Position numbers and translations under genes: made by a program | Notes under the pieces: generated by a model | What the model saw: the letters and a program-made list of their open reading frames with translations, nothing else | Told to the model about the DNA's origin: nothing | Database searches by the model: none | NCBI RefSeq assembly: GCF_963921235.1 | Contig: NC_086097.1 | Coordinates: 107,014,001 to 107,078,000 of the forward strand | Direction of reading: 5' to 3' | From: Mobula hypostoma | Taxonomy: Eukaryota | Length of the DNA stretch: 64,000 bases | Part shown: piece by piece, positions 10,418 to 60,000 of the stretch | Layout: each line of letters starts with the position of its first letter | Position numbering within the stretch: the stretch's first letter is position 1

Positions 10418-11234
10418 AGGTGGATGATCAGCCATGATCGTAATGAGTGACGGTGCAGGCTCGAAGGGCCAAAAGGCCTACTCCTGCACCTACTTTCTAT
10501 GTTTCTATGTTTCTATTTACTTTGTACCCTGCCTTGGAGTTTGTCCTTCCAAAGTGTACCACCTCACACTTCTCCGGGTTGAACTCCATCTGCCACTTCT
10601 GCATTCAATGTCTCTCTGCAATCTTCGACAATCCTCTCCACTATCCACAACACCACCAACCTTTGTGTCATCTGCAAACTTGCCAACCCACCCCCACATC
10701 CAGGTCGTTAATAAAAATCATGTAAAGTGGAGGTCCCAGAACCAATCCTTGTGGGAAACTACAAGTCACAACCCTCCAATCTGAATGTACTCCTTCCACC
10801 ACGACCCTCTGCTTTCTGCAGGCAAGCCAATTCTGAATCCACCTGGCCAAACTTCACTGGATCCCATGCTTTCTGACTTTCTGAATAAGCCTATCATATG
10901 GAACCTTGTGAAAAGCCTTACTAAAATCCATATAGATCACATCCACTGCACTACCCTCATCTATATGCCTCCTCAAAGAACTCTATCAGGCTTGTTAGAC
11001 ATGATCTGCCCTTCACAAAGCCATGCTGACTGTTCCTGTCAGACCATGATTCTCTAAATGCCCATAGATCCTATCTCTAAGAATCTTTACCAACAGCTTT
11101 CCCACCACAGACGTAAGGCTTACTGGTCTATAATTATCCGGACTATCCCTACTACCTTTTTTGAGCAAGGGGATAACATTCGTCTCCCTCTAATCTTCCA
11201 GTACCATTCCCGTGGACAACGAGGACATAAAGAT

Positions 11235-11459
11235 ACAAACACGAGGAAATCTGCAGATGCTGGAATTTCAAGCAACATACATAAAAGTTGCTGGTGAACG
11301 CAGCAGGCCAGGCAGCATCTCTAGGAAGAGGTACAGTCGACATTTCGGGCCGAGACCCTTCAGCAGGACGAAGGGTCTTGGCCCGAAACGTCGATTGTAC
11401 CTCTTCCAAGAGATGCTGCCTGGCCTCCTGTGTTCACCAGCAACTTTTATGTGTATTGC
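11235..11459. mobile_element. ~225 bp palindromic mini-element of two head-to-head PLE 3' ends with hammerhead remnants
   Basis: Arms are reverse complements around ~11365; 13 bp TSD aggacataaagat at 11222-11234 and 11460-11472; interrupts CR1 ORF2. Confidence 0.92.
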
Positions 11460-12944
11460 AGGACATAAAGATCCCAGCCAGAGGCTCAGCAATCTCTTCC
11501 CTCGCCTCGTGGAGCAGCTTGGGGAATATTCCATCAGGTCCCGGGGACTTACCCGTCCTAATGTATTTTAACAACTCCAACACCTCCTCTCCCTTAATAT
11601 CAACATGCTCCGGAACATCAACCTCACTCATATTGTCCTCACTGTCATCAAATTCCCTCTCATTGGTAAATACTGAAGAGAAGTATTCATTGAGAACCTT
11701 GCTCACTCCAGGCACATCTTCCCACCTTTAAGTCTAATCGGTACTATCTTCACTCCTGTCATCCTTTTGTTCTTCACATAATTGAAGAATGCCTTGGGGT
11801 TTTCCTTTACCCTACTCGCCAAGGCCTTCTTATGCCCCCTTCTTGCTCTCCTCAGCTCCTTCTTAAGCTCCTTTCCTGTTACCCTATATTCCTCAATGGA
11901 CCCATCTGATACTTGCTTCCTAAACCTCATGTATGCTGCCTTCTTCCACCTGACTAGATTCTCCACCTCACTTGTCACCCATGGTTCCTTCACCCTACCA
12001 TTCTTTTTCTTCCTCACCGGGACAAATTTATCCCTAACATCCCGCAAGAGATCTCTAAACATCAACCACATGTCCATAGTACATTTCCCTGCAAAAACAT
12101 CATCCCAATTCACACCCGCAAGTTCTAGCCTTATAGCCTCATAATTTGCCCTTCCCCAATTAAAAATATTCCTGTCCTCTCTGATTCTATCCTTTTCCAT
12201 GATAATGTTCAAGGCCAGGGAGTGGTGGTCACTATCCCCCAGATGCTCACCCACTGAGAGATCTGTAACCTGACCCAGTTCGTTACCTAATACTAGATCT
12301 AGTATGTAACGAACCTAATCGCTCTGTCAACATACTGTGACAGGAATTCCTCCTGGACACACTTAACAAACTCTGCCCCGTCTAAACCCTTGGAACAAGT
12401 CAGGTGCCAATCAATATTAGGAAAGTTCAAGTCACCCATGATAACAACCCTGTTATTTTTTCACCTTTCCAAAATCTGTCTCCCAATCTGCTCCTCAGTA
12501 TCTCTATTACTACCAGGGGGCCCATAGAATACTCTCAGTAGAGTAACTGCTCCCTTCCTGTTCCTGACTTCTACCCATACCGACTCAAAAGAGGATCCTG
12601 CTACATTACCCCTCTCTTTCTGTAGCTGTAATAGTATCCCTGACCAGCAATGCCACTCCTCCTCCCCTTTCCCCCCTCTCTATCCCTTTTAAAGCACTGA
12701 AATCCAGGAATACTGAGAACCCATTCCTGCCCTGGTGCCAGCCAAGTCTCTGTAATGGGCACTACATCATAATTCCATGTATGTATCCAAGCTCTCAGTT
12801 GATGAAGTCCTCACTGGTCAGAAATAGTATCAGATGCTGGAGGGTGGCAAATGTTATTCCTTTGTTCAAAAAAGCTGTAGGGATAATCCGGGGAATTATA
12901 GACCAGCGAACCTTACATCTGTGGTGGGAAAATTATTGGACAGC

Positions 12945-13954
12945 ACCCTTAGGCAATCAGCAATTGCCTCTGATCTGGACCAACATTTACGTGCCGGGCG
13001 GCACCTAATTAATTACCTTGTTTATTTCGGCTTTTTTCTTAAAAATGTGTCGGATGTGTCCCGGCTACTGCTGCATTCTCCACGGCAATGTATCAGTCCT
13101 CAGCCTGGGGGTTGGGGTGGTGGGACACTGGGATGTCATCCCATCCTCATCTCTTTCCATTAGGGCAGGCAGGTCATCTTCTTTTATGTCTGCCTGCCTC
13201 GATGTCGAAGGTCGAGGTTCATCACCTGCTGTGGCTAATGTGGAAGGCTTGAAAAAGGACAGTATGCTTGACTGCTAGCCTCGCGCATTTTTCTATCATA
13301 CAGTTCTTTGTAAGCACTCAGACAATCTTGCAAATATGTCCTAAACCTACGTACCCTTTCAAAATGAAAGTCATACTTTTCTGCAATCATTGTTGTCGAT
13401 TGCAGCGAAAATCTCATGCAGTTGCTTCACGTTCAGTTCCTGGACAACTGCACTTTCGGTCCGTTCGCTACTGCATTCGATTTTGATTGTTATCCTTTCC
13501 TCTTCCAATTGCATCAGCTCTTCATCTATCAGTTCTTGGTCATGGGACGCCAAAACCTCTTCGACATCATCTTCGTCAACTTCCACAAGCCAAACTCACT
13601 TTGTCCTTGCTTCGTTCACCATGATCGAAATGCTTAATTATGTCTAGTTTTACGTTAAGTGTAACACATTTACAAGCTCTTCTAGGTTTTTCCGATACCT
13701 TAGAACTCATCTTGCTAATGGCTGCTCACAGGCATGTGTTTAAGCAATGCCGGCTAGAATGCAGTTCCGAATCCGGGGGAGAAGCGGCTGCTCAGGGCGG
13801 GCGCTGCCTTTTATCACGCGCTGCTTTTTTTCGCGCACTACCTTTTTTCATAACAGTGAAAACAACTTCTGTTAGCAAAAACAGGTAACTAATGTAGGTC
13901 TTTCGTAACAGTGAGGTTTCGTAAAGCGAATGTTCGAAAAGCGGGGGACACCTG
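12945..13954 (-). mobile_element. Tigger-like DNA transposon derivative (one TIR + transposase C-terminus)
   Basis: Minus-strand TA-CAGGTGTCCCCCGCTTTTCG terminus at 13954; ORFs EVDEDDVEEVLASHDQELIDEELMQLEEE and ERVRRF...YKELYDRK. Confidence 0.85.
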
Positions 13955-14365
13955 TACGCCAGACTACAACAGCACCCCCCTTATCAATGGGTTTTATAGT
14001 AAGGTTAGGATTGGTGCGGGGAGAGTGGAGAGCAGAGCATTCAGAAGGAGTGAGGTTGGAATTGGAACAAGATGTGGTGAAGTCGAAATGGTTGATGTCC
14101 TGTTGGCAGTTAGCAATAAAGAGATCCAGAACAGGCAGAAGACCAGAGTGGTGTGTCCATGAAGATGAGGAGGGTTGAAGACAGGAGAAGGGATCATCGG
14201 TGGGGGTGGGAGAGTCCTTGCTGAAGAAGTAGGCTCGAAGATGGAGCCGGCAGACCCTTCTTTCAGTTAGTCCTGACAAACGGTCTCAGCCTGAAATGTC
14301 GACTGTACTTCTTCCTATAGATGCTGCCTGGCCTGCTGCATTCCACCAGCATTTTGTGTGTGCTG
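13955..14365. mobile_element. PLE remnant: minus-strand RT N-terminus joined to a short inverted plus-strand 3' end
   Basis: ORF 13872..14279 RLHLRAYFF...IKPIDKGGAVVVW; ~14255-14365 cagttagtcctgacaaacggtctcagcctgaaatgtcgac...tgtgtgtgctg. Confidence 0.85.
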
Positions 14366-17994: not shown

Positions 17995-18067
17995 GTGTGA
18001 AATACTATACTCCTGGGCCCTCAGAGGCTCCATCTTCCTCTCACCCCAACCCTCCCCTCTCCACTGA

Positions 18068-20302
18068 AACCACCAGCCTCCCCCCTCTGATCCCAGCTCT
18101 CATCCGTGCCGGGTCTTTACCATCCCCTCCGACCTTCAACTGTCGGAGGCAGAACGCTCTGTTCTCAGTAAGGGCCTCACGTTTGTCCCCCTTCGCCCAC
18201 ACCTCAGCGAGTTCCGTGTTCGCCACGATGCGGAACTTTTCTTCCGCCGTCTCCGTCTCCGAGCCTACTTCTTCGGCAAGGACTCTTCCACCCCCACCGA
18301 TGACCCCTTCTCCCGTCTTCAACCCTCCTCTTCTTCATTGACACCCCGCTCTGGTCTTCTGCCTGCTCTGGATCTCTTTATTGCTAACTGCCGACGGGAC
18401 ATCAACCGTCTCGACTTCACCGCACCTTGTCCCCATTCCAACCTCACTCCTTCGGAACGCTCTGTTCTCCACTCCCTCCGCACTAATCCTAACCTTATTA
18501 TTAAACCCGCTGATAAGGGGGGTGCTGTTGTAGTCTGGCGTACTGACCTCTACCTTGCCGAGGCGCAGCGACAACTCGTGGATACCTCCTCTTATTTACC
18601 CCTCGATCGTGACCCCACTAAGGAGCACAAGGCCATTGTCTCCCACACCATCACCGACTTTATCCGCTCAGAGGATCTCCCATCTACTGCTACCAACCTC
18701 ATAGTTCCCACACCCCGCACTTCCCGTTTCTACCTGCTACCCAAGATCCACAAACCTGCCTGTCCTGGCCGACCTATTGTCTCAGCTTGCTCCTGCCCCA
18801 CCGAACTCGTTTCTGCATACCTCAACACTGTTTTATCACCCCTTGTTCAATCCCTTCCGACCTATGTTCGTGACACTACTCACGCTCTTAAACTTTTCGA
18901 TGATTTTAAGTTCCCTGGCCCCCACCGCTTTATTTTCACCATGGATGTCCAGTCCTTATATACTTCCATCCCCCATCAGGAAGGTCTCAAAGCTCTACGC
19001 TTCTTTTTGGATTCCAGACCTAATCAGTTCCCCTCTACCACCACTCTGCTCCGTCTAGCGGAATTAGTCCTTACTCTTAATAATTTCTCCTTTTGCTCTT
19101 CCCATTTCCTCCAAACTAAAGGTGTAGCTATGGGCACCCGTATGGGTCCTAGCTATGCCTGCCTTTTTGTTGGGTTTGTGGAACAATCTATGTTCCGTGC
19201 CTATTCTGGTATCTGTCCCCCACTTTTCCTTCATTACATCGACGACTGCATTGGCGCTGCTTCCTGCACTCATGCAGAACTCGTTGACTTTATTAACTTT
19301 GCCTCCAACTTTCACCCTGCCCTCAAGTTTACCTGGTCCATTTCCGACACCTCCCTCCCCTTTCTAGATCTTTCTGTCTCTGTCTCTGGAGACAGCTTAT
19401 CCACTGATGTCTACTATAAGCCTACTGACTCTCACAGCTATCTGGACTATTCCTCTTCTCACCCTGTCTCTTGCAAAAACGCCATCCCCTTCTCGCAATT
19501 CCTCCGTCTCCGCCGCATCTGCTCTCAGGATGAGGCTTTTCATTCTAGGACGAGGGAGATGTCTTCCTTTTTTAAAGAAAGGGGCTTCCCTTCCTCCACT
19601 ATCAACTCTGCTCTTAAACGTATCTCCCCCATTTCACATACATCTGCTCTCACTCCATCCTCCCACCACCCCACTAGGAATAGAGTTCCCCTGGCCCTCA
19701 CCTACCACCCCACCAGCCTCCGGGTCCAACATATTATTCTCCGTAACTTCCGCCACCTCCAACGGGATCCCACCACTAAGCACATCTTTCCCTCCCCCCT
19801 TCTCTCTGCATTCCGCAGGGATCGCTCCCTACACAACTCCCTTGTCCATTCGTCCCCCCCATCCCTCCCCACTAATCTCCCTCCTGGCACTTATCCGTGT
19901 AAGCGGAACAAGTGCTACACATGCCCTTACACTTCCTCCCTTACCACCATTCAGGGCCCCAAACAGTCCTTCCAGGTGAGGCATCACTTCACCTGTGAGT
20001 CGACTGGGGTGATATACTGCGTCCGGTGCTCCCGATGTGGCCTTTTATATATTGTTGAGACCCGACGCAGACTGGGAGACCGCTTTGCTGAACATCTATG
20101 CTCTGTCCGCCAGAGAAAGCAGGATCTCCCAGTGGCCACACATTTTAATTCCACATCCCATTCCCATTCTGACATGTCTATCCACGGCCTCCTCTACTGT
20201 AAAGATGAAGCCACACTCAGGTTGGAGGAACAACACCTTATATTCCGTCTGGGTAGCCTCCAACCTGATGGCATGAACATCGACTTCTCTAACTTCCGCT
20301 AG
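18068..20302 (+). CDS. PLE polyprotein: reverse transcriptase, Cys-rich linker, GIY-YIG endonuclease (5'-truncated)
   Basis: Frame of ORF 18338..20302 is open from 18068 (LSKGLTF.P, FFRRLRLRAYF); KPADKGG, FYLLPKIHK, GRPIVS, MDVQSLYTSIP, GVAMGTRMGPSYA, YIDD, LPFLD, CKRNKCYTC, VIYC..C..C..YIVET, HF, LEEQ. Confidence 0.9.
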   Translation, partial: NHQPPPSDPSSHPCRVFTIPSDLQLSEAERSVLSKGLTFVPLRPHLSEFRVRHDAELFFRRLRLRAYFFGKDSSTPTDDPFSRLQPSSSSLTPRSGLLPALDLFIANCRRDINRLDFTAPCPHSNLTPSERSVLHSLRTNPNLIIKPADKGGAVVVWRTDLYLAEAQRQLVDTSSYLPLDRDPTKEHKAIVSHTITDFIRSEDLPSTATNLIVPTPRTSRFYLLPKIHKPACPGRPIVSACSCPTELVSAYLNTVLSPLVQSLPTYVRDTTHALKLFDDFKFPGPHRFIFTMDVQSLYTSIPHQEGLKALRFFLDSRPNQFPSTTTLLRLAELVLTLNNFSFCSSHFLQTKGVAMGTRMGPSYACLFVGFVEQSMFRAYSGICPPLFLHYIDDCIGAASCTHAELVDFINFASNFHPALKFTWSISDTSLPFLDLSVSVSGDSLSTDVYYKPTDSHSYLDYSSSHPVSCKNAIPFSQFLRLRRICSQDEAFHSRTREMSSFFKERGFPSSTINSALKRISPISHTSALTPSSHHPTRNRVPLALTYHPTSLRVQHIILRNFRHLQRDPTTKHIFPSPLLSAFRRDRSLHNSLVHSSPPSLPTNLPPGTYPCKRNKCYTCPYTSSLTTIQGPKQSFQVRHHFTCESTGVIYCVRCSRCGLLYIVETRRRLGDRFAEHLCSVRQRKQDLPVATHFNSTSHSHSDMSIHGLLYCKDEATLRLEEQHLIFRLGSLQPDGMNIDFSNFR

Positions 20303-20595
20303 GCCCCACCTCCCCCTCGTACCCCATCTGTTACTCATTTTTACGCACACATTCTTTCTCTCACTCTCCTTTTTCTCCCTCTGTCCCTCTGAATATACCT
20401 CTTGCCCATCCTCTGGGTCACCCCCCCCTTGTCTTTCTTCCCGGACCTCCTGTCCCATGATCCTCTCGTATCCCCTTTTGCCTATCACCTGTCCAGCTCT
20501 TGGCTCTATCCCTCCCCCTCCTGTCTTCTCCTATCATTTTGCATCTCCCCCTCCCCCTCCAGCTTTCAAATCCCTCACTCACTCTTCCTTCAGTT

Positions 20596-20631
20596 AGTCC
20601 TGACGAAGGGTCTCGGCCTGAAACATCGACT
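20596..20631 (+). ncRNA. Minimal type I hammerhead ribozyme motif (GTC>ATC variant)
   Basis: AGTC CTGACGA AGGGTCTCGGCCT GAAAC ATC GACT; stem I AGTC/GACT. Confidence 0.75.
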
Positions 20632-21546
20632 GCGCCTCTTCCTATAGATGCTGCTTGGCCTGCTGCGTTCACCAGCAACTTTGATGTATGTTGTGTGAAA
20701 TACTAGATGGGAGCAGCACAATTAAAGCATAAATATTGTTTAGGTTTTTAAAAATAGATGATATCAAGAGGAAATCAGATGACAAGAGCACGAAATGAGG
20801 CTATTTGACCCTTTGAGTCTGCACTACTTCTGTGCACGAGTGAATCAATGAGTCTACCTCTCGCAGCCTCTACCAATAGCCCTGTAAATTGTTTTCTTTT
20901 AACTTTTAAATACTTAAGCTGCCTTTTAAATGCTACAGTTTGTTCTTTTAATTATCACAATCCCTGACAGCAATCCAGACTACAATATTCACTGTGCAAA
21001 AATACATTTTTATTCTGTCACTCTTAAGTCTTCTTGCCAATCACTTTCACTCAAGTCCAGTAGTTCATGACCTCTCCACCAACAGGAATAGTCTCTATCT
21101 ACATTACTCTTCATTATGTTAAATGCCTCCATCAATCTCCTCCCAGCAGCCTCTATTCCAAGGAACACAATCCAAAATCTCTAGTCCATTCACAGAACTA
21201 ATCTCTCTCATTCTTGTTACTAACTTGGTAAAGACACTCCAGTTTTGACCAAATAAATACTGTATAAAGATGCATCATGATTTTTCAATGTGCCCCTACA
21301 ACTTTCAACAAGGCATGAAAAGACCCCGAGATCTCTCTGTTCCTGTAACACTTTCAAAATCATAACTCCCTGTTTTAGTTTCATCTCATTCATTCTTCCA
21401 AAATGCTGGTTTCATACATCTTCATATTCAATTTCATTTGCTACCTGTTGCATCTCACTAAATCAATCCATTACACCCTCAAATGTTATATCATCTAAAT
21501 ATTTAAAAATTGCATCCTATACATCAAAGTGCGAATTATTAATATA

Positions 21547-23599: not shown

Positions 23600-24084
23600 A
23601 GAATTTCATATTTCAACATCCCTGGCTACAGAACTGCTACAAGACAGTTAGAGGATTGCTAAAGTTGAACCATCATTTTAAAAGGAAGGAAAGAATAAAC
23701 TAATTACAAACTAGCTAGTTTAATTTTGATATTGGGCAAATTACTAGAATCAATTATAACCATAATGTAGACATACAGATTAATCAGGAATACTCAGCAT
23801 AGATTTCTTAAGGAAAAATCATAGCTGATTTACTCAAATGAATTTTTTTTTTTTTTTTTTAAAAGAGGAGTGTTGACAGCTTCAAGTAATCTGCATGGAT
23901 TTTAGTACTTCTTTTGACAAGGTCCCACATGACAGGCTGGTCATAGAAGTAAAGATACAAGGATCAAGGGGAAACTAGATCACAAATTAGCTCAGTGGTG
24001 GGAAAGAGAGGATAATAATTGACAACACACATAAAAGTTGCTGGTGAACGCAGCAGGCCAGGCAGCATCTCTAGGAAGAGGTGC

Positions 24085-24120
24085 AGTCGACGTTTCAGGT
24101 CGAGACCCTTCATCAGGACT
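24085..24120 (-). ncRNA. Minimal hammerhead ribozyme, intact core
   Basis: Reverse complement: AGTC CTGATGA AGGGTCTCGACCT GAAAC GTC GACT. Confidence 0.82.
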
Positions 24121-24966
24121 AACTGAAGGAAGAGTGAGTAAGGGATTTGAAAGTTGGAGAGGGAGGGGGAGATCCAAAATGATAGGAGAAGACAGGAGGG
24201 GGAGGGATGGAGCCAAGAACTGGACAGGTGATAGGCAAAAGGGGATACGAGAGGATCATGGGACAGGAGGTCCGGGAAGAAAGACAAGGTGGGGAGAGAC
24301 CCAGAGGATGGGCGAGGGGTATATTCAGAACTACAGAGGGAGAAAAAGGAGAGTGAGAGAAAGAATGTGTGTATAAAAATAAGTAACAGATGGGGTACGA
24401 GGGGGAGGTGGCCTTTTATATATTGGCGAGACCCGACGCAGACTGGGAGACCGCTTTGCTGAACACCTACGCTCTGTCTGCCAGAGAAAGCAAGATCTCC
24501 CAGTGGCCACACATTTTAATTCCACATCCCATTCCCATTCTGACATGTTTATCCACGGCCTCCTCTACTGTGAAGATGAAGCCACACTCAGCTTGGAGGA
24601 ACAACACCTTATATTCCGTCTGGGTAGCCTCCAACCTGATGGCATGAAGATCGACTTCTCTAACTTCCGCTAATGCCCCACCTCCCCCTCGTACCCCATC
24701 TGTTACTTATTTTTATACACACATTCTTTCTCTCACTCTCCTTTTTCTCCCTCTGTAGTTCTGAATATACCCCTTGCCCATCCTCTAGGTCCCCCCGCCC
24801 TTGCCTTTCTTCTCGGACCTCCTATCCCATGATCCTCTCGTATCCCTTTTGCCTATCACCTGTCCAGCTCTCGGCTCCATCCCTCCCCCTCTTGTCTTCT
24901 CCTATCATTTTGGATCTCCCCCTTCCCCTCCAACTTTCAAATCCCTTACTCACTCTTCCTTCAGTT

Positions 24967-25002
24967 AGTCCTGATGAAGGGTCTCGGTCTGAAACGTCGA
25001 CT
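24967..25002 (+). ncRNA. Minimal hammerhead ribozyme, intact core
   Basis: AGTC CTGATGA AGGGTCTCGGTCT GAAAC GTC GACT. Confidence 0.82.
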
Positions 25003-25319
25003 GCACCTCTTCCTAGAGATGCTGTCTGGCCTGCTGCGTTCACCAGCAACTTTTATGTGTGCTGCTTGAATTTCCAGCATCTGCAGAATTCCTGTTGTTT
25101 GCGATAAAAATTGACAAGTGATTTTTCTTGTGAATGGAAGGCTACTCAGTAGTCTTGGGAAATCAAATTTTTTTTGTTCTAAATATTACTGATTTACACT
25201 TTGAAGACAATACAAAATTTGCAATGTGGTTCACAGAGGAGAAAAGCTTTAAACTGCAGGAAATTACAAATGATCTGGTCAGTTGGTCAGAAGAGTGGCA
25301 ACAGGATTTAATTTGGAGA

Positions 25320-26630: not shown

Positions 26631-27234
26631 ATTTCCAAATATCACTTGTGAGGTGGTTTTGATCTCCTATGCAAGTTTGTGAATGTTGGGTTCTGTGCTT
26701 GCCTGGAGTGATTTGAGCTGGTTACTGAAGAAAATAAAGAGCCATAAATCACTAATTGTCATTTGCTGGGAAGAGGGCAATAAATAGTTGTTGGCCTGGA
26801 GCAGAGCCAATAAAAAGGTGCTGAATGTCAGACATATGACCTACAGCCAATGACACTGGAACGCAATATTTTAATTGGTAAGGAACGAATATAAAAGTGG
26901 ACACTTCAAGCATGTTATCAGTGATAACTCTCTCAAGACACCCACCATCAGGAGGAAGAACCTCCAAGCCAGGGGCTCGAAGAACGGATCAATCATCTGG
27001 CCAACGGAGATGCCCTATTTCAGTGATATAAATTGGACAAGTTGTCCGAGTGATATTGTTAAACAGAACAGCAGAATTCACGTTCTAAGTTGTTGGCGTG
27101 GGGTCAACATATTCACATTGTCGTTTGTGCAGAGACAATAACATGCAAGCTTTGATTAATTAAAAATAGCATAACCATAAATGAACGATCAACACCTTGG
27201 CCTGTTACCCACATAGGGAGAGGATAGAAATTAC

Positions 27235-35458: not shown

Positions 35459-35488
35459 ATATATATACACACACACACATACACACAC

Positions 35489-35570
<82 letters not shown>
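35459..35570. repeat. Compound (TA)n/(CA)n/(TA)n/(TG)n/(TA)n microsatellite
   Basis: Read directly from the sequence. Confidence 0.95.
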
Positions 35571-44925: not shown

Positions 44926-46086
44926 GAGAGCATCATTATAAGAAAGCAAGAAATATAAGAGGGAATACAAAAAGAACTTATTTAATGGCTGAAGTGACTG
45001 GTGTGAATGTATTTAAGAAGATGTTGAACAAACATATGAGAAATAAGAGAATAGAGGGTTATGATGATAGCATAATTTCTTGATTTATTTTGTAATTTAT
45101 AGTAATTTTACATCTGCAACCACAAAACAACGAATTTCCCATCATACAGTTCTAAGACATTTGATAATAAACCTGACTCTGTTTCTGATAAATTTGGATA
45201 AAGAACAATGAAGAGGTAGTTCAAGAGGAGCACCACTTAACTCCCTTGGAGTCCAAAGTAGTTCAATTTGCTAAAATTTAGCTGCATCACATTTCACTAG
45301 GGAAGCATCTCTTTAGTTCCTGCACTAGGTTAGTGGAGAAGGTAGCATGAAGACTTATAGGAAAAAGAGAAGGCAAATGATTCTTTTTAAGTACTTCATA
45401 TTATTTTAAAATTTATCAACTGTTTATATGTTTTATTTATTTAAGTAAATATTTTTGCATTTTACTTTAAATACAAGTTAATTTTAATGTATTAATGTCA
45501 GGGGGATTCAAAACTTACAACTTTCTTAGCTAGCAATGCCTGTCCTCACTTTACCTGGATCCAAAGACTATTCAAAGTATTTAGGAGCAAGGTTTAAGAT
45601 GGTGCTGCTGAAGGCAGGCAAGAACTTAGTGGTGGTTCGCAAAGCAAGAGTTACAACTAAATGCTTTCTTAATAATAACACTTTTTCTGTAAAAAAAAAT
45701 ATGGCAAACGATCAAAACAATGAAAAGGCAAGGCTGACTCGAATGTCAAGGCATGAGGGTGAGAGCAAGGTCAAGGCATATTCAAAGAGAAGTAGTCAAG
45801 GTGAGGTTGAGGTATGTTTGAGATGGAGAGAGATTTAGAGCAAGCAGAGCGGAGGAGTTTCGGACCCCTCCACCTAAACCAAGAGCAAAGTCTGATTGAT
45901 CTAAAAGCTGGGTTGATTTGGAAGGGTCAGGTATGAGCCAGAATGATGTGGCAGGATCCATGCCCAGAGTGTATCAATTCAATAGGGCAAACAACAGGAA
46001 TTCTGCAGATGCTGGAAATTCAAGCAACATACATCAAAGTTGCTGGTGAACGCAGCAGGCCAGGCAGCATCTATAGCAAGAGGCGC

Positions 46087-46122
46087 AGTCGACATTTCAG
46101 GCCGAGACCCTTCGTCAGGACT
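46087..46122 (-). ncRNA. Minimal hammerhead motif (GAAAC>GAAAT)
   Basis: Reverse complement: AGTC CTGACGA AGGGTCTCGGCCT GAAAT GTC GACT. Confidence 0.72.
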
Positions 46123-46414
46123 AACTGAAGGAAGAGTGAGTAAGGGATTTGAAAGCTGGAGGGGGAGGGGGAGATGCAAAATGATAGGAGAAGACAGGAG
46201 GGAGAGGGATGGAGCCGAGAGCTGGACAGGTGATAGGCAGAAGGGGATACGAGAGGATCATGGGACAGGAGGTCCGGGAAGAAAGACGGGGGGGGGGGTG
46301 ACCCAGAGGATGGGCAAGAGGTATATTCAGAGGGACAGAGGGAGAAAAAGGAGAGTGAGAGAAAGAATGTGTGCATAAAAGAGTAACAGATGGGGTACGA
46401 GGGGGAGGTGGGGC

Positions 46415-47776
46415 CTAGCGGAAGTTAGAGAAGTCAATGTTCATGCCATCAGGTTGGAGGCTACCCATACGGAATATAAGGTGTTGTTCCTCCAACCTGA
46501 GTGTGGCTTCATCTTTACAGTAGAGGAGGCCGTGGATAGACATGTCAGAATGGGAATGGGATGTGGAATTAAAATGTGTGGCCACTGGGAGATCCTGCTT
46601 TCTCTGGCGGACAGAGCGTAGATGTTCAGCAAAGCGGTCTCCCAGTCTGCGTCGGGTCTCGCCAATATATAAAAGGCCACATCGGGAGCACCAGACGCAG
46701 TATACCACCCCAGTCGACTCACAGGTGAAGTGATGCCTCACCTGGAAGGACTGTTTGGGGCCCTGAATGGTGGTAAGGGAGGAAGTGTAAGGGCATGTGT
46801 AGCACTTGTTCCGCTTACACGGATAAGTGCCAGGAGGGAGATCAGTGGGGAGGGATGGGGGGGACGAATGGACAAGGGAGTTGTGTAGGGAGCGATCCCT
46901 GCGGAATGCAGAGAGAGGGGGGGAGGGAAAGATATGCTTAGTGGTGGGATCCCGTTGGAGGTGGCGGAATTTGCGGAGAATAATATGTTGGACCCGGAGG
47001 CTGGTGGGGTGGTAGGTGAGGACCAGGGGAACCCTATTCCTAGTGGGGTGGTGGGAGGATGGAGTGAGAGCAGATGTACGTGAAATGGGGGAGATGCGTT
47101 TAAGAGCAGAGTTGATAGTGGAGGAAGGGAAGCCCCTTTCTTTAAAAAATGAAGACATCTCCCTCGTCCTAGAATGAAAAGCCTCATCCTGACAGCAGAT
47201 GCGGCGGAGACGGAGGAATTGCGAGAAGGGGATGGCGTTTTTGCAAGAGACAGGGTGAGAAGAGGAATAGTCCAGATAGTTGTGAGAGTCAGTAGGCTTA
47301 TAGTAGACATCAGTGGATAAGCTGTCTCCAGAGACAGAGACAGAAAGATCTAGAAAGGGGAGGGAGGTGTCAGAAATGGACCAGGTAAACTTGAGGGCAG
47401 GGTGAAAGTTGGAGGCAAAGTTAATAAAGTCAACGAGTTCTGCATGCGTGCAGGAAGCAGCGCCAATGCAGTCGTCGATGTAGCGAAGGAAAAGTGGGGG
47501 ACAGATACCAGAATAGGCACGGAACATAGATTGTTCCACAAACCCAACAAAAAGGCAGGCATAGCTAGGACCCATACGGGTGCCCATAACTACACCTTTA
47601 GTTTGGAGGAAATGGGAGGAGCAAAAGGAGAAATTATTAAGAGTAAGGACTAATTCTGCTAGACGGAGCAGAGTGGTGGTAGAGGGGAACTGATTAGGTC
47701 TGGAATCCAAAAAGAAGCGTAGAGCTTTGAGACCTTCCTGATGGGGGATGGAAGTATATAAGGACTGGACATCCAT
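46415..47776 (-). CDS. PLE RT core + GIY-YIG endonuclease (453 aa, 5'-truncated)
   Basis: MDVQSLYTSIP, RYIDD, CKRNKCYTC, VVYC...YIGET. Confidence 0.8.
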   Translation of the reverse strand: MDVQSLYTSIPHQEGLKALRFFLDSRPNQFPSTTTLLRLAELVLTLNNFSFCSSHFLQTKGVVMGTRMGPSYACLFVGFVEQSMFRAYSGICPPLFLRYIDDCIGAASCTHAELVDFINFASNFHPALKFTWSISDTSLPFLDLSVSVSGDSLSTDVYYKPTDSHNYLDYSSSHPVSCKNAIPFSQFLRLRRICCQDEAFHSRTREMSSFFKERGFPSSTINSALKRISPISRTSALTPSSHHPTRNRVPLVLTYHPTSLRVQHIILRKFRHLQRDPTTKHIFPSPPLSAFRRDRSLHNSLVHSSPPSLPTDLPPGTYPCKRNKCYTCPYTSSLTTIQGPKQSFQVRHHFTCESTGVVYCVWCSRCGLLYIGETRRRLGDRFAEHLRSVRQRKQDLPVATHFNSTSHSHSDMSIHGLLYCKDEATLRLEEQHLIFRMGSLQPDGMNIDFSNFR

Positions 47777-48079
47777 GGTGAAAATAAAGCGGTGTGGGCC
47801 AGGGAACTTAAAATTATCGGAAAGTTTAAGAGCGTGAGAAGTGTCACGAACATAGGTTGGAAGGGATTGGCGTGAGAAGTGTCACGAACATAGGTCGGAA
47901 GGAATTGGCGTGAGAAGTGTCACGAACATAGGTATTCCTCTTCTCACCCTGTCCATAGCTATCTGGACTATTCCTCTTCTCACCCTGTCTCTTGCAAAAA
48001 CGCCATCCCCTTCTCGCAATTCCTCCGTCTCCGCCGCATCTGCTCTCAGGATGAGGCTTTTCATTCTAGGACGAGGGAG

Positions 48080-48823
48080 ATGTCTTCCTTTTTTAAAGAA
48101 AGGGGCTTCCCTTCCTCCACTATCAACTCTGCTCTTAAATGTATCTCCCCCATTTCACATACATCTGCTCTCACTCCATCCTCCCACCACCCCACTAGGA
48201 ATAGAGTTCCCCTGGCCCTCACCTACCACCCCACCAGCCTCCGGGTCCAACATATTATTCTCCGTAACTTCCGCCACCTCCAACGGGATCCCACCACTAA
48301 GCACATCTTTCCCTCCCCCCTTCTCTCTGCATTCCGCAGGGATCGCTCCCTACACAACTCCCTTGTCCATTCATCCCCCCCATCCCTCCCCACTAATCTC
48401 CCTCCTGGCACTTATCCGTGTAAGCGGAACAAGTGCTACACATGCCCTTACACTTCCTCCCTTACCACCATTCAGGGCCCCAAACAGTCCTTCCAGGTGA
48501 GGCATCACTTCACCTGTGAGTCGACTGGGGTGGTATACTGCGTCCGGTGCTCCCGATGTGGCCTTTTATATATTGGTGAGACCCGACGCAGACTGGGAGA
48601 CCGCTTTGCTGAACATCTACGCTCTGTCCGCCAGAGAAAGCAGGATCTCCCAGTGGCCACACATTTTAATTCCACATCCCATTCCCATTCTGACATGTCT
48701 ATCCACGGCCTCCTCTACTGTAAAGATGAAGCCACACTCAGGTTGAAGGAACAACACCTTATATTCCGTATGGGTAGCCTCCAACCTGATGGCATGAACA
48801 TTGACTTCTCTAACTTCCGCTAG
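48080..48823 (+). CDS. PLE C-terminal fragment (linker + GIY-YIG)
   Basis: ERGFP, CKRNKCYTC, VVYCVRCSRCGLLYIGETRRRL..RF.EH. Confidence 0.7.
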   Translation: MSSFFKERGFPSSTINSALKCISPISHTSALTPSSHHPTRNRVPLALTYHPTSLRVQHIILRNFRHLQRDPTTKHIFPSPLLSAFRRDRSLHNSLVHSSPPSLPTNLPPGTYPCKRNKCYTCPYTSSLTTIQGPKQSFQVRHHFTCESTGVVYCVRCSRCGLLYIGETRRRLGDRFAEHLRSVRQRKQDLPVATHFNSTSHSHSDMSIHGLLYCKDEATLRLKEQHLIFRMGSLQPDGMNIDFSNFR

Positions 48824-49115
48824 GCCCCACCTCCCCCTCGTACCCCATCTGTTACTCTTTTATGCACACATTCTTTCTCTCACTCTCCTTTTTCTCCCTC
48901 TGTCCCTCTGAATATACCTCTTGCCCATCCTCTGGGTCACCCACCCCCCCTTCTTTCTTCCCGGACCTCCTGTCCCATGATCCTCTCGTATCCCCTTCTG
49001 CCTATCACCTGTCCAGCTCTCGGCTCCATCCCTCCCCCTCCTGTCTTCTCCTATCATTTTGGATCTCCCCCTCCCCCTCCAGCTTTCAAATCCCTTACTC
49101 ACTCTTCCTTCAGTT

Positions 49116-49151
49116 AGTCCTGACGAAGGGTCTCGGCCTGAAACGTCGACT
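49116..49151 (+). ncRNA. Minimal type I hammerhead ribozyme, consensus core
   Basis: AGTC CTGACGA AGGGTCTCGGCCT GAAAC GTC^GACT; predicted cleavage after C49147. Confidence 0.85.
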
Positions 49152-51409
49152 GCGCCTCTTCCTATAGATGCTGCCTGGCCTGCTGCGTTCACCAGCAACT
49201 TTGATGTATGTCAATTCAATAGGGTTCGGGTCCTAGAGCAAGGAACAACCTGAAATCTGGACAATTTAAACGCAGGGCCAGATAGATTGAAAAGGCACGG
49301 TGTCAGGACCAGAGGCAAGAGAATCAGGCCAGGCCAGTTCTGCTCCCTGCTCCACAATGTTTGCTCCACTCTTTGCTGCACTGAGGCAGAGGCTAATAAT
49401 CTGTTCCAACTGCTCCAGGCTTCATGTTTTTGAGCTCCATAATATCTGTGTGATGAACTGAGACTGAGGCTGAGGCTGTGGGCCTGCTCCGGCTGCTCCA
49501 GGCTTTGTGTCTATGGACGCACTTTCATTCTGAATGCCATTTACTTACCTCAATTGTGTGCATGATCTGTTTCTCTCTCTCTCTCCCTGTGTGCACATTG
49601 CATGTTTATTGGATTTTTTAATGGGTTTTTTTGGGGTTTCTTGTTTTGTGGCTGTAAGGAGACGAATCTCAAGGTTATATAATGTACAAGTACTTCGATA
49701 ATAAATGTACATTGAACTTTGCTGCTGTTGTTGGATGAGGCATGTGGATGACTTTATGGCCATGGGCAGACCAGCACAGGCAATTCTAGGTGGGGAACTA
49801 CGCCAGTATAATTTGGCCTTTTATTGTGAAAGCCAAGCATAATAATATTTGTCAATCTGTCAGGAGAACATTGCATAATTTAGTAGAAGGTAAAGTCATT
49901 TAGGACAGTTTTGCTTTGGGAATGGTCCATTAACTGCTATTTTGCATTTGTATAACGTAGCAGCACCACAATTCCATAAAAACTTCTACTCTTTCACTTC
50001 ATTCACCAAAAACTTTACAACATAGACTTCAAAGTATTGCCCAGAGTGTAGTTGAAGTAATTGCATACCTTAAAAAAAACACAATCGGTTCAAAAGAACA
50101 AAATGGGATTAATTAGATAGCTTTTTCCAGAGCTGGAAAGAGCACAATGGACCATATGCTGCATGATACTCCATGATTGCCATTAAATATGCTAATGTTT
50201 TGATTTTAAATTGATCAGATTGAACAGTATTTTCGAAGACACTTTTAGTTTTGTCCCAGAGGTACGAGTAATATTGGCAAGATACACTTATTACCCAACC
50301 CCCAACTGCCCTCAGGTGGTGATGACGGGCATTATCCTTGAACCACTGCTGTCTGATTAGCCATCTTTAAAAAGCCACAACACAGAAAATGACCATTCAC
50401 AACAAAATTAGTTACTTGTATATTAACTTCTATACTTGCATTGGTTACTTTAACTGTGATCGGAGTTAATTTTGTGTTTATCCTTGGAATCGTCCAGAAA
50501 GATGTGCTATCAGTATAATATGGTTTGCCAACAGCATCTAAGCAATGAACATTCTCATATTATTTGACATATGGTGCTTTTGACCATGTTTTGTGTTTGC
50601 CATTCGCACCTCCCTCACTCCTTCTGCTAAATTCTCTTCATGGAAACAAACCAATTAATTTTGTGCAGTCTTCATGTTAGGCTCAAGCCCTGAAAAGAAT
50701 AGACACACTGCTCGTGGGGCACCTAGAGAGACAGTATAAAGAAAATACATCATTTTAAATTCAAGCCCAATAGTTTACTTATCTCAATAAAGACAGGAAG
50801 CTCCTTTCATATAATATTTCAAGTGCACTGGCATTCAATCTATTGCCATTTATTCTTCCAGTGTGATACTACAGGCAATGTGGGCAGCTGCAAAACAGAA
50901 GCTGCAGCAGGAGGCAAGATGTAGACTTATGGCATAAATCCAAAAATTCAATTCATACTCCATGCAAAACAACTCTGAAGGATTACTGCAAATGATTGTA
51001 AAGTGACTGCTGACCCACTTAAAAACAGCTTCCCCCCCCCATTTCTTCTCTCTGTGGACCCAGAATACACGAAAAATTTACATGTCCATTTTATTAATAG
51101 TTCAAGCAGCCATCCTGTTCACAGTAAAAATAGTCCAAAAGTCAATCTTTTCTTTATTACAGTTCAAAAAATGGAAGTTCTAGTACTGGTTTTGGTTTCA
51201 AGTGATCAGGTTTATTTTTCTTGAAATTACTTATAATGTTTTATGTGACCTGAATTGAATCTGTGGCACATCAGGTACTCCGATCCTAGGATTGATACTT
51301 AAAGCAGTTAGCTTACTGTTATATCATTGACCTGGTGTAGGAGACGGAAAAAATAAAATCAAATAGCATCTGAAATAATTATTTATAACTTATTAGAAAA
51401 AGTAAACTC

Positions 51410-51577: not shown

Positions 51578-52473
51578 TTAGAAAGTGGAACATTTGACTT
51601 CCAAATCTGCCTTTATATTTTGTAGTTCATCTATATTTTCCCTGTTTGAAAGCATTAGTTACAATACTGTCAATGCATAGTACATAACAAAATTGACAAA
51701 CAGTATTACAATTAGAGCATTAATTGTCAAATGCAATATATAATAGGACACCACAACAAATAATCTTTTCAGATTCCAGGTTTAATTTCTAATGCATTAG
51801 GACAGAGTTGATTTCATGAAGGACATCAGTTTTAATTGGTCTCTCTACTCTAAAGTAATGCAGTGGAAAATGACTACTGTAGAGATGTGTTCAACATGCT
51901 TTGCTGAATATGGCTTAGACAAATGCAAAAACAGACAAGACTTGTTAGAGGTTACCTATACTCAAATACTCTCCCAGCACATACTCAAGGTACAGGACAA
52001 AGATATAGGCTAGTTGGATAATGCATATTTTGCAATTTTTTTCTAAGTCCCTGGAGGTAGTGCAGAAAATGGGGCAGGTCACTGAAGAATCCCAGCCAAA
52101 GTTAAGGTAGTAATTTTAATATTAACTGTTGGTTTTGACATTATAGACTAAATAATAACCAAGCCACACACGCAGTATATTTAGGCATTGCACACTATCA
52201 AACCTACACACTGCCTTTGATCTCAAACTGTATTCAGAAATCAATCATTTTTCCACATGTCATCTGTAAACTTTGGGTGTAGCTGTGTGTTGTGGGCCCA
52301 TGTCCATTGAGAATTGAAATATTGCTTGATATCCCTTCTTTGGAGCTTTAACAGCTGTTGGGCTGGTGACTTCCACTTCATCAATCTGAGCTGCATTTGA
52401 ATTCAAACCCAGGTCTCAGACTTGAACATATAGTTATTTAACATACAATACTTTCTAGTTCCTTCGATACCTT

Positions 52474-52686
52474 GTAACACCCACAAAATGCTGGAGGAAC
52501 TCAGCAGGCCAGGCAGCACCTATGGAAAAAACTATCTGACGTTTCAGAGTGTCCTGCCGAAGGGTTTTGGCCCAAAATGTTAACTGTACTTTTTTCCCAT
52601 AGATGCTGCCTGGCCTGCTGAGTTCCTCCAGCATTTTGTTTGTGTTGCTTGGATTTCCAGCATCTGCAGATTTTCTCTTGTTTGTG
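52474..52686. mobile_element. Palindromic mini-PLE (different subfamily)
   Basis: Inverted arms around ~52548; TSD cctt(c/g)gatacctt at 52461-52473 and 52687-52699. Confidence 0.85.
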
Positions 52687-53329
52687 CCTTGGATACCTTT
52701 AGTTGAATTAGTGAATCGTACAATTGTTTCAAATAAAATTGTAGAAAATAAACATGGATCAAACATGCAATAAATTATAATTAAACAATGGAAATATCTA
52801 GCTCAAAGCAAAACACATGCCAAAGCACCTTGTATATTGTTCACAATGTAGTGACAAATGTTAACAAAAATCATAGAATATATCAGACACAACAGCACAA
52901 AAATTACAACAAATTATAGTAATAGTACCAATAGGGAGATATTTATCTCTAACTACATAATGATTTAGATCTTGAAATAGTATGATGGCAAATTTATCAA
53001 TACTCACTGTCCTATACACACACTTAACCATCGTGCTTCAAAGATTGTTCCAATCTCCAAAGCAGGCAAGCAAATAACTTGAATTCCCATGAATTTATGA
53101 TACTTAAATTTGCACTACAAACAATTTCCATTACAAAAGATGCTGGAATCTGGAGGGAGCCTATCACAATATGGAATGAATAAAAAGGATGTGTTTAATG
53201 TCAGATTAATGTTGATGATTGACATGGACGCGGTGGTCTGAAAGGTTTGTTTATAGTCACAGAGTCATACAATTGGCCCTCTAGCCCAACTCATCCATGT
53301 CAAACAAGTTTTCGTAATGAGCTAGTCCT

Positions 53330-55770: not shown

Positions 55771-56818
55771 TTACTTGCCTATATTTGGCTCATATCCCTC
55801 TAGGTCTTTCCTATCCAGTAACCCTGACCAAATATCTTTTAAACGTGGTAATTATACCTGCACCCGTAACTTCCTCTGGAAGCTCATTCAATATATCCAG
55901 TACCGTCTGTATGAGAAGCTTGCCCCTCGTCCCCTTTAAATCTTTCCCCTCACTCTAAACCATACACCTTTTTCACCCCCTTGTCTACCTGTGTGACCAC
56001 TTCCAGAGAACTATGTGCTAGTCTCTCTAGAGTTCTCTGATCTAGAACACATCCCAGGGCTGCTGTGCAAGTGTTGCTCTGGTTTATCTTTCCACAATTT
56101 TCACATTTGTTAAATTTAAATTCTATCTGTCATCCCCTAGCCCACTTTCCCAGTTGACCCAAATCTACTGTAACATTGGAGAGCCTTTGTCACTATCACT
56201 ATGGACACTATCAATTTTCGTGTCATTTGCAAACTTACAACTGATATGCACCTACATTTTCATTTAAGTATGATAATATAAAAATATTTATCATGAATTT
56301 ATTATTAAATGTAATAACTGAAGTCCCAGCACCAATCCCTGTCATACAGCACTGGCCACATACCTCCAATGTGACAAGTAACTCCCCATTACCATCTTCT
56401 GACTCCTGCAACCAAGTTAATTTTGTGTCCGATGTGTTATATCACTTCACAAATCTCTATGTTCAGTCAAAGCAAGTACTTCCTCTGTCACTCCATCCAG
56501 TATTGATAGGATCACCTAATACTTGAAGATAGTTGCCAATTGATACCTCATAACTTTACGTAAGATTTGGAACTTTCTAGACTTGCTACTTTTGCAACAA
56601 TCTGAAGGGTCTGGTATACTGTTGTTGAAAGTCTGCTTTGGCTTCAAATTTCTGTACCAACCTGTTGCTCTTAATAGACTGATTAGTAGGCTTGTTGTTT
56701 AGATTCTTAATACTTGAGGACACAGTAATCAACCCAATAGAACCCCATCAGCGGTCTTAAAAATTATTCATTTATTCTTACTCTGTTTTTGCTCATTAGT
56801 CAATCCACAATTCTTGCT

Positions 56819-57046
56819 CAAACACGAGGAATTCTGCAGAAGCTGGAAATTCAAGCAACACACATCAAAGTTGCAGGTGAACGCAGCAGGCCAGGCAGCA
56901 TCTCCAGGAAGAGGTACAGTCGATGTTTCGGGCCAAGACCCTTCGCAGAGTCCTGACGAAGGGTCTCAGCCCGAAACATCCACTGTACCTCTTTGTAGAG
57001 ATGCTGCCTGGCCTGTTGCTTTCACCAGCAACTTTGATGTGTGTTG
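56819..57046. mobile_element. Palindromic mini-PLE (~228 bp)
   Basis: Inverted arms around ~56947; plus-strand hammerhead motif 56949-56984; 14 bp TSD ccacaattcttgct at 56805-56818 and 57047-57060. Confidence 0.92.
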
Positions 57047-60000
57047 CCACAATTCTTGCTAGTACTTTTTCCCAAAACAATACGTTTTCAAATGCTGAAT
57101 GGAATGGAACTAAAGATGGTGCCAGAGGTAGACTTCTCCTAGCCCATCAGCGAAAGTTAAATTCTTCCTCTTCTAATGTCTCTACTTTCATTTTCAAGGT
57201 GGCTGGGGCTCCAAAGTCTGTGATCTACAGTAGCACTTAAACTATGGTTCTGCACCGCGGTGCTTTCCCATTCTTGGTGCTCACTGATCAATGTGCAGCC
57301 TGAAGTTGGGCGCCTTTGGGTTGCAGCTTTATGTGGCTCAGTGGACACAAATTCTTTCCAGCGTTGCAAAATGAAGGTGGTACATTGGGACAGCTTTTTG
57401 CCTCTCTTACTGTAGAAGGAATGATATGTCTCTGCTTTCTGAGAAGAGAGAGCTTGAGGGATGTCAAATTGTTGGAATGAACAGTTTGTTTTGATGGACT
57501 GTGGACTATGGTCTCCCCTTGGGGACTTTACTGTTGCTTGCATCATGGGTGGTGGGTGTGCTGATGCTATCTGCTAGATTAAGTTGAGGGGGGGTGGGAG
57601 GGTTGATGCTGCTTGCATGTGGGAGGGGGGCCAGGGGCTTTGGGGTTCTTACATTTTTTTCTGTCATTCATTCTTTGGGATTTTTCTTCTGTTTCAAGAA
57701 TATCTGCAGAGAGTAAGAGTTTCATGTTGTATATCATATGCATTCTCTGATATTAAAACAGAACCATTGAACATTTTAAGGCACCTTAGGGAACTCAAAG
57801 TACATTGCTTCCAAGAGATGTGTCAATGAACTCTGATAACCTCATTAAATCATTTCTTTTTCACAAAACCACATGACTCTATTTGTATTAGCAATGCACT
57901 GACAGAACACAAATATTACTGCTGTTGCTCTATGGGAGAACCACAATTTCATGCTCCTTGGCCTGATTAATCGAAGAAAGCGAATGGAACAGTTTACTTA
58001 ACTGGTAGAATACTACATATTCATTTGAATGCATCTCCAAAGTCACAACAGCAGGAGCAGTTGCACTGTAGCACTGAGAAAGTTCTGTTTGGTCTGCAAT
58101 GCAAGTTAAGCAGCAAGTTGAAAAGTGGTAGGTCATATAGCTATCAACAAGTAAAAGTACGCAGATGAGGGAATTCTGAAATCAAAATATAATACATTGA
58201 CAATGCTTAGCAGGTTATGCATCTTCTACAGAGAGAGGAACAAAATTCCTATTTCAGTTAAATGACCTTTCATTGGATTTTTCTTTGGAGTTGGAGCTAT
58301 ACAGTTCCTCTGGCAAGCCTATCAAAAGGCCAGACATTTCACTGTACACACCCTTTAGCCTTACTCTATAGGGTATTCCATCAAGTTCCTGAGTCCATTA
58401 CAGCAGAATCTCATGTTATTCTATACAGAGTGCAGACCATTCATTTCCAGTGATCCTTCATGTCCCCCTCCAAAGTACATAGAATGTCTACAGCTAATTC
58501 CATCTTTGTAGGCAAAAGCTGTAGCTACAGAGAGTGGTATAAAATTACACCAGCTGCACCTTGTAAATGAGATGAGATTGTGGAATGTGGTAAGTGCAAG
58601 ACACATATTCAGTGATGGAAACTCCATTCTCCCAAACACACCCTTGCAATTGGAATAAGCTCATCCATTATCAGTCAGGTACTGCAGTGTTTGAGTGCTT
58701 CCTCGTTTTGCAAGAAAGGAAGGTGTGGCAAATTTCCAACCATGCATTTGGATGACCGATCTCCCACGTGAATAGTCAGTAGCCTGTATAGCATTGAAGT
58801 GTGAGTCTGAGGCTTACAGCAGATATGTCTATGAGGAGAAACAGGAGTAAAATTAATATTAGTTATCTATCCTGATTGACAGAAATTGCAGGCAGGCAAG
58901 TGAAAATGGTACTGTGAAGAACTGAGCGCAGACTATGATGTGTAATGCGGTTATTAGAAAATGACATTCAAAAACACAGACAGAAAACTTCATTCTGCAT
59001 GTGAGGTCACTAAGGCACTGTAGTTAAGTAGTTAAGGACCCCCAAAAGAAGCCGGACATCTTTCCTCCTCTCCACCAAGCCCCAAGTATAGCACAGAAAA
59101 ATGTGGGTTCTGTGTATTTCTATGTGATTATATTATTGAATATCTCGCAAATTAACTCCAGTTGCTTATAGCAGCAAATATGCACTTCTTTTTAAGAGAT
59201 ATATCCAGGCTTCTATCGTGAACTATTACTGCCCATCACACAGTAGACCTCTGGCAAAGCAGCAAAACAATGAAAAGTATGTTTAGTACTGATTTCACTC
59301 AGAATTAATTGAGTGTTGCCTATTTCAGAAAATAAAACAAGCTCAGATTGATTATGGATTGGGTTACCAGTTCCCATTTTCTGAGGGAATCCAGTTTAAG
59401 CCTCTATTTATGCTACAGGTCTTGGTTTGTTTCTCATGTGCCAAATGAAAAGCATCCACCAGATTTTATTCATACACTATCTATAGTTTAGAAGATAGGA
59501 AAACCACAAAAAAGCACTCAGCTCAGAAGATCCCGACAAAACGTTTATTTTTTTAAAATTCTCTTTCCACTAGTCCAGTATATGTCTCAGTTTTGCAAAG
59601 ATCAATGCATATTTTAACCTCAGACTGTTGTTAACAAATACAGAACTGTTGCCAGTTGTTCTCAAAATGAAAATTCCAATAACGGGAATGTTCATTCTGA
59701 TCACATCAGACTGCACTACCCTTCTCTCAAAGGGTGCCCCAACAAGTCACCCTGTTGTCTAGATAAAAATAATATTCTCTGAAGTAAACACGAGAGACTG
59801 CAAATGCTGGAACCTGGAGCAACATACAATCTGCTGGAAGATCTCAACAGGTCAGAGCTACTACGGAAGAATAGAATTGTTGTCATTTGGATCAAAACTC
59901 TACATCAGGACTGAGTGGAGAGGAGAAATGGATGGAATAAAGAGGAGAAGGAGAGTAGTCAATGAAGGAAAATATTCTACCAAGTTCAGACATATAAGGC

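Follow-up and report, generated by a model that had tools for sequence, protein, structure and literature searches.

Penelope-like elements (PLEs) are known to leave inverted, 5'-truncated copies with a tail on one side only (PMC8557442, PMC3846280), and the origin of their inverted ends and of the one-sided tail is called undefined in PMC8557442. For the anole element PAc, cutting of both target strands has been shown in vitro, and reverse transcription in vitro starts at two internal sites, which correspond to both ends of the tail (PMC11167929); in the accessible main text of that paper, inverted joins, a stop at helix I and the pairing of a long with a short start are not treated. Minimal hammerhead ribozymes are thought to work as same-strand dimers, and in Schistosoma pairs of them on opposite strands lie 100 to 700 bp apart (PMC4209133). 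A literature search, with most subscription papers and Repbase reports outside its reach, returned no description of a minimal hairpin class or of a helix I stop, and the accessible part of PMC5753468 holds nothing on minimal hairpins.

In the window considered here, namely the whole 64-kb stretch of DNA that was analysed, we examined four palindromic insertions of 213 to 228 bp (E1 to E4, hereafter minis), which, judging from their letters, are the short end of the known two-armed PLE pattern, also represented at 1.1 kb and 3.2 kb, and not MITEs. Hairpins of this kind risk being annotated as MITEs or as ribozyme genes, and host transcripts that contain them gain the potential to form long double-stranded RNA. 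A very abundant mini with its starts, stop and junction in one short read makes models based on two cDNAs, on the snap-back of one cDNA and on replication countable from an assembly.

The parent element and its longer copies

The longer copies of the family that are needed for the comparison are as follows.

18008..20694, plus strand: P20, the longest parent copy, a single arm running to the tail-less terminus, with an exact 13-bp TSD
24024..25102, unstranded: P24, long and short layout with arms of ~390 and ~690 bp and a 14-bp TSD with one mismatch
45988..49210, unstranded: P46, long and short layout with arms of ~1880 and ~1260 bp, an exact 14-bp TSD, and RT and GIY-YIG coding sequence

The 744-aa frame of P20 comprises RT, a CX4CXXC linker and a GIY-YIG-type endonuclease, and the parent thus has the order of an EN+ Penelope-like element, with RT followed by a C-terminal GIY-YIG endonuclease. 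In the copies at 18068 and 45988-49211, the Pfam matches to RVT_1 (E = 3e-05) and to GIY-YIG (E = 3e-04 to 6e-04) all lie below the curated cut-offs of Pfam. The CX4CXXC linker falls within the CX2-5CXXC pattern that precedes the endonuclease in Neptune/Nematis-type elements (PMC8557442), and on this motif the parent is classified as a Neptune-type PLE, an assignment in which the linker does not separate Neptune from Nematis. A Poseidon-type parent, which had been our first guess, was dropped on the same linker.

The junction of P24 lies on a 4-nt match (GTGG). The junction of P46 (47870-47954) contains a ~27-nt piece from the RT region of the element itself three times in tandem, together with a duplicated ~21-nt piece, and these repeats resemble the templated insertions left by end-joining.

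The family is very abundant in the contigs of two organisms, with 294,738 contigs of run X1 matching one long arm (four of 24 runs compared). One piece of the element occurs within a protein attributed to a ray, which fits a cartilaginous-fish host, and pattern scans for the family gave 0 matches in viral, metagenome and prokaryote collections. Translations of the element terminus, in either orientation, are also included in the predicted host proteins P0002, P0003 and P0005, where the module has been pulled into gene models.

Some further remnants were observed in the window. The one at 13954-14366 consists of a tail-less arm of 112 bp fused to 300 bp from the 5' part of the ORF in inverted orientation; no TSD was found at this place, and its left side adjoins, at a TA, what we take to be the end of a DNA transposon. 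Very old arm remnants occur at 60923-61128 (maybe a fifth two-armed mini; E = 0.63 and 0.002), at 29919-29996, beginning at the hammerhead start (E = 6e-08), and at 58164-58273 (E = 0.019). All counts given here omit the weak profile matches at 60923-61128 and 58164-58273, as well as the 27230-27679 fragment, which has no 3' end.

Anatomy of the four minimal insertions

The minis and their parts were located as follows.

11222..11234, plus strand: left TSD of E1, 13 bp, an exact match to 11460-11472; a LINE homologue is contiguous across the empty site
11235..11271, minus strand: tail of E1, ~37 bp, confined to the long arm; the outer end of this tail is read as the downstream RT start site described in PMC11167929
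11272..11369, minus strand: core of the E1 long arm, from the PLE terminus through the hammerhead to the G of GTCCTG (5' end of helix I)
Between 11339 and 11338, long arm (minus strand): predicted hammerhead cut site of E1
11367-11369: GAC at the centre of E1, readable on both arms as a 3-nt inverted match
11370..11459, plus strand: short arm of E1, spanning helix II up to the terminus without tail
11460..11472, plus strand: right TSD of E1, exact 13-bp repeat
11235-11459: whole E1, 225 bp
52461..52699, unstranded: E2 including its TSDs (52461-52473 and 52687-52699, 13 bp with one mismatch)
52474-52686: E2 insert, 213 bp, with the short arm at 52474-52547 (minus strand), three extra bases and the long arm at 52551-52686 (plus strand)
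56805..57060, unstranded: E3 including its TSDs (56805-56818 and 57047-57060, 14 bp, exact)
56819-57046: E3 insert, 228 bp, with the long arm at 56819-56945 (minus strand), three centre bases and the short arm at 56949-57046 (plus strand)
~63629-63838 (approximate), unstranded: E4, with the long arm to 63750 (minus strand), starting GTCCT, and the short arm from 63751 (plus strand)

The original prediction, made from the letters of this DNA, had named palindromic insertions at 11235, 52474, 56819 and ~63620, and all four are present; it had also given three of them a TSD of their own, of 13 to 14 bp, as we find for E1, E2 and E3. In a chance control, the best score among 150 random site pairs was 9, compared with 13 for E1, 10 for E2 and 14 for E3; the search range of the control was narrower than that used for the elements, so that E2 lies only marginally above it. 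For E4, the oldest and decayed mini, no TSD above chance was found. E1 sits inside a LINE, whose homologue at ~54320 is contiguous after deletion of one TSD copy, and E1 is therefore a clean insertion.

The arms had been taken for PLE 3' ends and, in fact, they match the 3' termini of the longer RT/GIY-YIG copies of the window. The long arm of E2 starts with GTCCTG, the short arm of E3 with AGTCCTGA; E2 belongs to an older subfamily, in common with the copy at 352-1244. Where at least two subfamilies had been named, the arms fall into three groups (E1/E3, E2 and E4). The layout known for inverted PLE insertions, with an inverted 5'-truncated copy, a one-sided tail of 30 to 40 bp and one TSD, is found in E1, E2, E3, P24 and P46, and E4 presents the same layout without the TSD. 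TSD lengths are 13, 13 and 14 bp in the minis and 13, 14 and 14 bp in the longer copies, with 10 bp in one old copy. Thus, the view of the minis as a reproducible minimal product of Penelope-type retrotransposition agrees with arms that are PLE 3' ends and with a TSD that matches that of the parent. The termini, the TSDs, the homology of the arms and the letters of the junctions are direct observations.

The palindromes are asymmetric, since the ~37-bp tail is present on one arm, whereas the other arm ends at a constant terminus further in, and the true termini of the minis are therefore not inverted repeats. E1 folds into one hairpin of -169.5 kcal/mol (z = -22), and 0 of 200 shuffles were as stable. 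Of the predicted hairpin with hammerhead parts on both strands, the hairpin is borne out by this fold, but no arm (0 of 8) retains an intact minimal hammerhead, defined by the core CUGANGA, an extra base, helix II, GAAA, a palindromic ACGU, C17 and helix I, as against three of nine other arms. The core pattern CTGAYGA-N3-30-GAAAC occurs six times in the window versus 0.46 expected, and an Rfam search of the window gave no hammerhead match at E<=1. Separately, a (TA)/(CA) microsatellite at 35451-35575 yields spurious sub-threshold miRNA matches in Rfam. Since the two motifs of a mini lie on opposite strands, they cannot form the cis dimer described in PMC4209133, and the finished mini, as modelled, should have no ribozyme activity, its motif being trapped in a long hairpin.

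Position at which the arms stop

All eight mini arms start between positions 553 and 578 of the 688-position profile, whereas the other copies start at 559, 549, 541, 468, 263 or much further up. The long arms of E1, E2 and E4 share their first base, the G of GTCCTGA, which marks the 5' end of helix I; in E3 it is the short arm, not the long one, that starts at the helix I site, one base earlier (AGTCC). Two other stubs start 10 to 15 nt upstream of helix I, one at 14254 and one in protein P0005 (by back-translation). As far as the sequence goes, this clustering suggests a preferred stop of cDNA synthesis, and the position of the centres at the start of the ribozyme motif may mark where the copied RNA begins.

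With regard to what could set this position, a junction at the ribozyme cut site is ruled out, since 8 of 8 arms extend beyond the predicted site, by 10 to 32 nt, and it follows that no linear RNA ending at this site after cleavage served as the template. Annealing strength alone is likewise ruled out: self-annealing of the helix I site (GTC with GAC) is weak, ~-4 kcal/mol, and stronger palindromes nearer the terminus (-8.6 and -10) are unused. Stalling of the RT before the ribozyme fold was rejected as well, since it would be expected to end the arms on the 3' side of the fold. The letters at the helix I site also resemble an initiator consensus, which would place the 5' end of the RNA at this point.

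The helix I site is also preceded by a pyrimidine run and AG, an acceptor-like signal that is unspecific, the whole 300 nt upstream being pyrimidine-rich. The 5' end of helix I is also where the Penelope intron of D. virilis ends (PMC4209133), the distance to the start site being 46 nt plus 75 nt (PMC2377424). The centres of the minis hold at most three extra bases, not an upstream exon, and neither a clean splice joint entering at 46122, where helix I has its 5' end in P46, nor one from the donor-like site described below to the acceptor-like helix I site was found among the 15 contig joints listed out of 1630. The donor-like sequence, CAG|GTGAGG at 46741 (minus strand), lies in the endonuclease region, has matching places in the copies at 18008 and 352, and is kept in two subfamilies, ~620 nt upstream of the helix I site. 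Loose contig ends pile up at 46122 (452 in run X1, 319 in X5 and 46 in X17), but, since the consensus of these ends corresponds to the diverged upstream sequence of other subfamilies, they were discounted as evidence of a stop. The depth step at the same position is confounded by these subfamilies, and contig depth cannot rank the parts of the element.

We regard it as unlikely that there is no preferred stop, in which case the minis would be the short tail of a smooth truncation distribution, enriched through the loss of long palindromes, and the junction would be set by short inverted matches alone. Longer versions do occur in the window, and the junctions of E1 and P24 lie on 3- to 4-nt matches; furthermore, with a mean arm of ~150 nt the clustering is not significant (P = 0.04-0.22). 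However, a smooth decrease predicts more arms below 85 nt than the single one found among eight, a profile search of the window gave no two-armed copy shorter than the minis, and the unused palindromes mentioned above speak against it as well. In simulations, P for four of six junctions within 26 nt was 0.001-0.043, and P for five of 13 end-bearing insertions was 0.003-0.22, depending on the assumed length distribution and null; the test is post hoc, on four minis that the original prediction had picked for their likeness, in a window chosen for its minis. Without a stop peak, the minis would be ordinary truncated copies.

A proposed route through two target-primed cDNAs

In our judgement, the minis are probably dead-on-arrival products of an autonomous Neptune-type PLE, made anew at each site. 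As the TSDs suggest, the endonuclease of the element would nick both target strands 13 to 14 nt apart, and each nick would prime a cDNA on the element RNA, one starting at the far end of the tail and the other ~37 nt upstream, thus giving the long and the short arm. As their sequence shows, both cDNAs passed the hammerhead cut site, so that the template was uncut or re-joined there. Host end-joining would then link the cDNA ends, either through a 3- to 4-nt inverted match or with a few added bases. Further synthesis by the same route would lead to the 1.1-kb and 3.2-kb two-armed insertions, and the end product would be a mini folded into a tight hairpin, its hammerhead parts divided between the two strands, for which neither self-cleavage nor replication is expected. 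What we infer in this scheme is that the two starts are coordinated, that synthesis stops and why, and by which route the ends are joined, and the mechanism of PAc would be transferred by analogy to the present Neptune-type element.

The pairing of the termini is informative in this respect. Each of the six two-armed insertions combines a long and a short terminus (E4, being decayed, is less sure), and the seven one-ended copies comprise three long, three short and one unclear, those ending alone at the tail-less terminus being P20, P36 and P14. Since the one-ended copies use either terminus, both are independent starts, as described in PMC11167929; by our arithmetic, a free choice between termini used equally often would yield six mixed pairs with a probability of 1 in 64.

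It is possible to hypothesize, although we hold this only tentatively and would not call it probable, that the minis are genomic 'strong-stop' products: on a single RNA, a dimer of the PLE protein would prime the two target strands, each at a different tail boundary, and both cDNAs would run to the 5' end of the RNA at helix I. If this were true, each mini would record two start sites, the position of the RNA 5' end and the fact that the ribozyme was uncut, and counting minis across the genome would read out the in vivo origin of inverted pLTRs and of the one-sided tail.

The main mechanistic rival to two target-primed cDNAs remains a snap-back, in which one cDNA from the tail end stops near helix I, folds back and copies itself, the short arm arising when the endonuclease resolves the hairpin at the tail boundary. 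The centre of E1 (GTC-NN-GAC) is precisely the sequence expected from a 3' end that folds back, so that it is reproduced equally well by this route, and the centre of E4 is one base off. Self-priming has been proposed for palindromes at inverted Penelope junctions (PMC3846280), the tail has been ascribed to endonuclease resolution (PMC8557442), and a snap-back would explain both the long and short pairing in 6 of 6 insertions and the alleles common to both arms. On the other hand, E1 and P24 are the copies whose junctions lie on inverted matches of 3 to 4 nt, whereas the centres of E2 and E3 have none that could prime a fold-back, and the hairpin required at E1 is only 3 bp. Moreover, the tail-less terminus ends P20, P36 and P14 on its own and corresponds to an RT start in vitro for PAc (PMC11167929). 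On balance, we consider snap-back rather unlikely as the general origin of the minis.

De novo formation and replication

Returning to formation anew at each site, the original prediction that the centres differ is confirmed in all six pairwise comparisons of the four minis, none of which is identical. In the arm tree, which is short and poorly resolved (two of 14 branches starred), E1 and E3 group with the young long copies and E2 with the copy at 352, E4 being apart. Taken together, the lack of identical centres and the distribution of the arms over three subfamily groups favour de novo formation over a replicating family. E1 and E3 are the closest pair (198 of 222 aligned bases identical); at alignment column 105, both arms of E1 have T, as P24 does, and both arms of E3 have G, as in P46 and P20, which points to different source RNAs. 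For the same two minis, an alignment as descendants of one ancestral junction is possible as well, given a 6-bp deletion and a 1-bp indel. Searches of junction-spanning translations against proteins gave 0 matches in one case, four matches in another, none of them across the inverted junction, and one match in a further search.

The suggestion that the minis could form a non-autonomous class with its own mobility, which would imply that at least some of them are transcribed and copied whole by the protein of the parent, appears improbable to us. It would account for the uniform size (213 to 228 bp) and the frequency of four in 64 kb, for the centres of E1 and E4, which are one base apart, and for the GCAG adjoining the centre in both E1 and E3; furthermore, pLTR sequences can mobilise cargo in trans (PMC3846280), and tandem non-autonomous PLE derivatives have been described (bioRxiv 10.64898/2026.07.22.740005). 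However, no two centres are identical, the arms of E1 and E4 are only 51 to 59% identical, and the three subfamily groups lie among the long parental copies, within the low resolution of the tree. The different parental alleles of E1 and E3 and the occurrence of the same layout with longer arms also argue against mobility of their own. In addition, the RNA of a mini would be a hairpin of -169 kcal/mol that hides the inner start site, and PAc needs RNA beyond the tail, namely the first 172 nt of its ORF (PMC11167929), for activity, which RNA the minis do not contain.

A MITE moved by a cut-and-paste DNA transposase is barely credible, even though the minis are short, palindromic, TSD-flanked and without coding capacity: neither inverted repeats at the true ends nor the TSD and termini of a DNA transposase superfamily are present, the tail is at one end only, and the arms are PLE termini. 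The TSDs of DNA transposon superfamilies measure 2 to 11 bp, and the 13 to 14 bp of the minis are longer and equal to those of the retroelement. Thus, the features that the original prediction had named as speaking against itself, namely arms unrelated to PLEs or a cut-and-paste pattern of TSD and termini, were looked for and are absent.

As a separate observation, protein P0001 seemingly contains head-to-tail short-arm units ending at helix I, with a spacer of ~6 residues, and one contig joint of run X5 leaves the element at 46122 and re-enters the tail at 46012; both could possibly derive from retrozyme-like tandems of the same module.

Comparison with known systems

In L1 twin priming, two target nicks each prime a cDNA and the cDNAs are joined, which results in an inversion inside one TSD, as in the model proposed for the minis. 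The second primer of L1 is placed at a variable internal site; different from this, the two starts of the minis are both fixed, ~37 nt apart, so that both arms copy the same sequence.

The non-LTR retrozymes (Li et al. 2026, bioRxiv 10.64898/2026.07.22.740005) are similar to the minis in being short, non-coding, hammerhead-bearing derivatives of PLE pLTRs. However, they are head-to-tail tandems with complete type I hammerheads on one strand, whereas the minis are single head-to-head units with broken motifs and do not belong to this class. The hammerheads themselves resemble the minimal motif of metazoan PLEs (Cervera and De la Pena 2014, PMC4209133), with a short helix I, an extra base before helix II and a loopless palindromic helix III; unlike the opposite-strand pairs reported there, the motifs of the minis abut or overlap at the centre, one of them is always incomplete, and 0 of 8 arms are intact today.

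With PAc (Frangieh et al. 2024, PMC11167929), the minis share two RT starts that bracket the tail, with both target strands cut and extended, and ribozyme cleavage is not needed by PAc, which matches the mini arms running past the cut site. The clade is different, PAc being a Poseidon element and the linker found here of the Neptune type, and the start site of PAc is described as AC-rich, while the present starts are GU-rich on the sense strand.

Finally, the inverted insertions of EN+ PLEs (Arkhipova et al. 2013, PMC3846280; Craig et al. 2021, PMC8557442) present the same head-to-head truncated copy with a one-sided tail of 30 to 40 bp, one TSD around the whole unit and palindromes at the inverted junction. 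The examples given there enclose an ORF or cargo, whereas the minis enclose nothing between their arms, whose inner ends cluster at the 5' end of the hammerhead.
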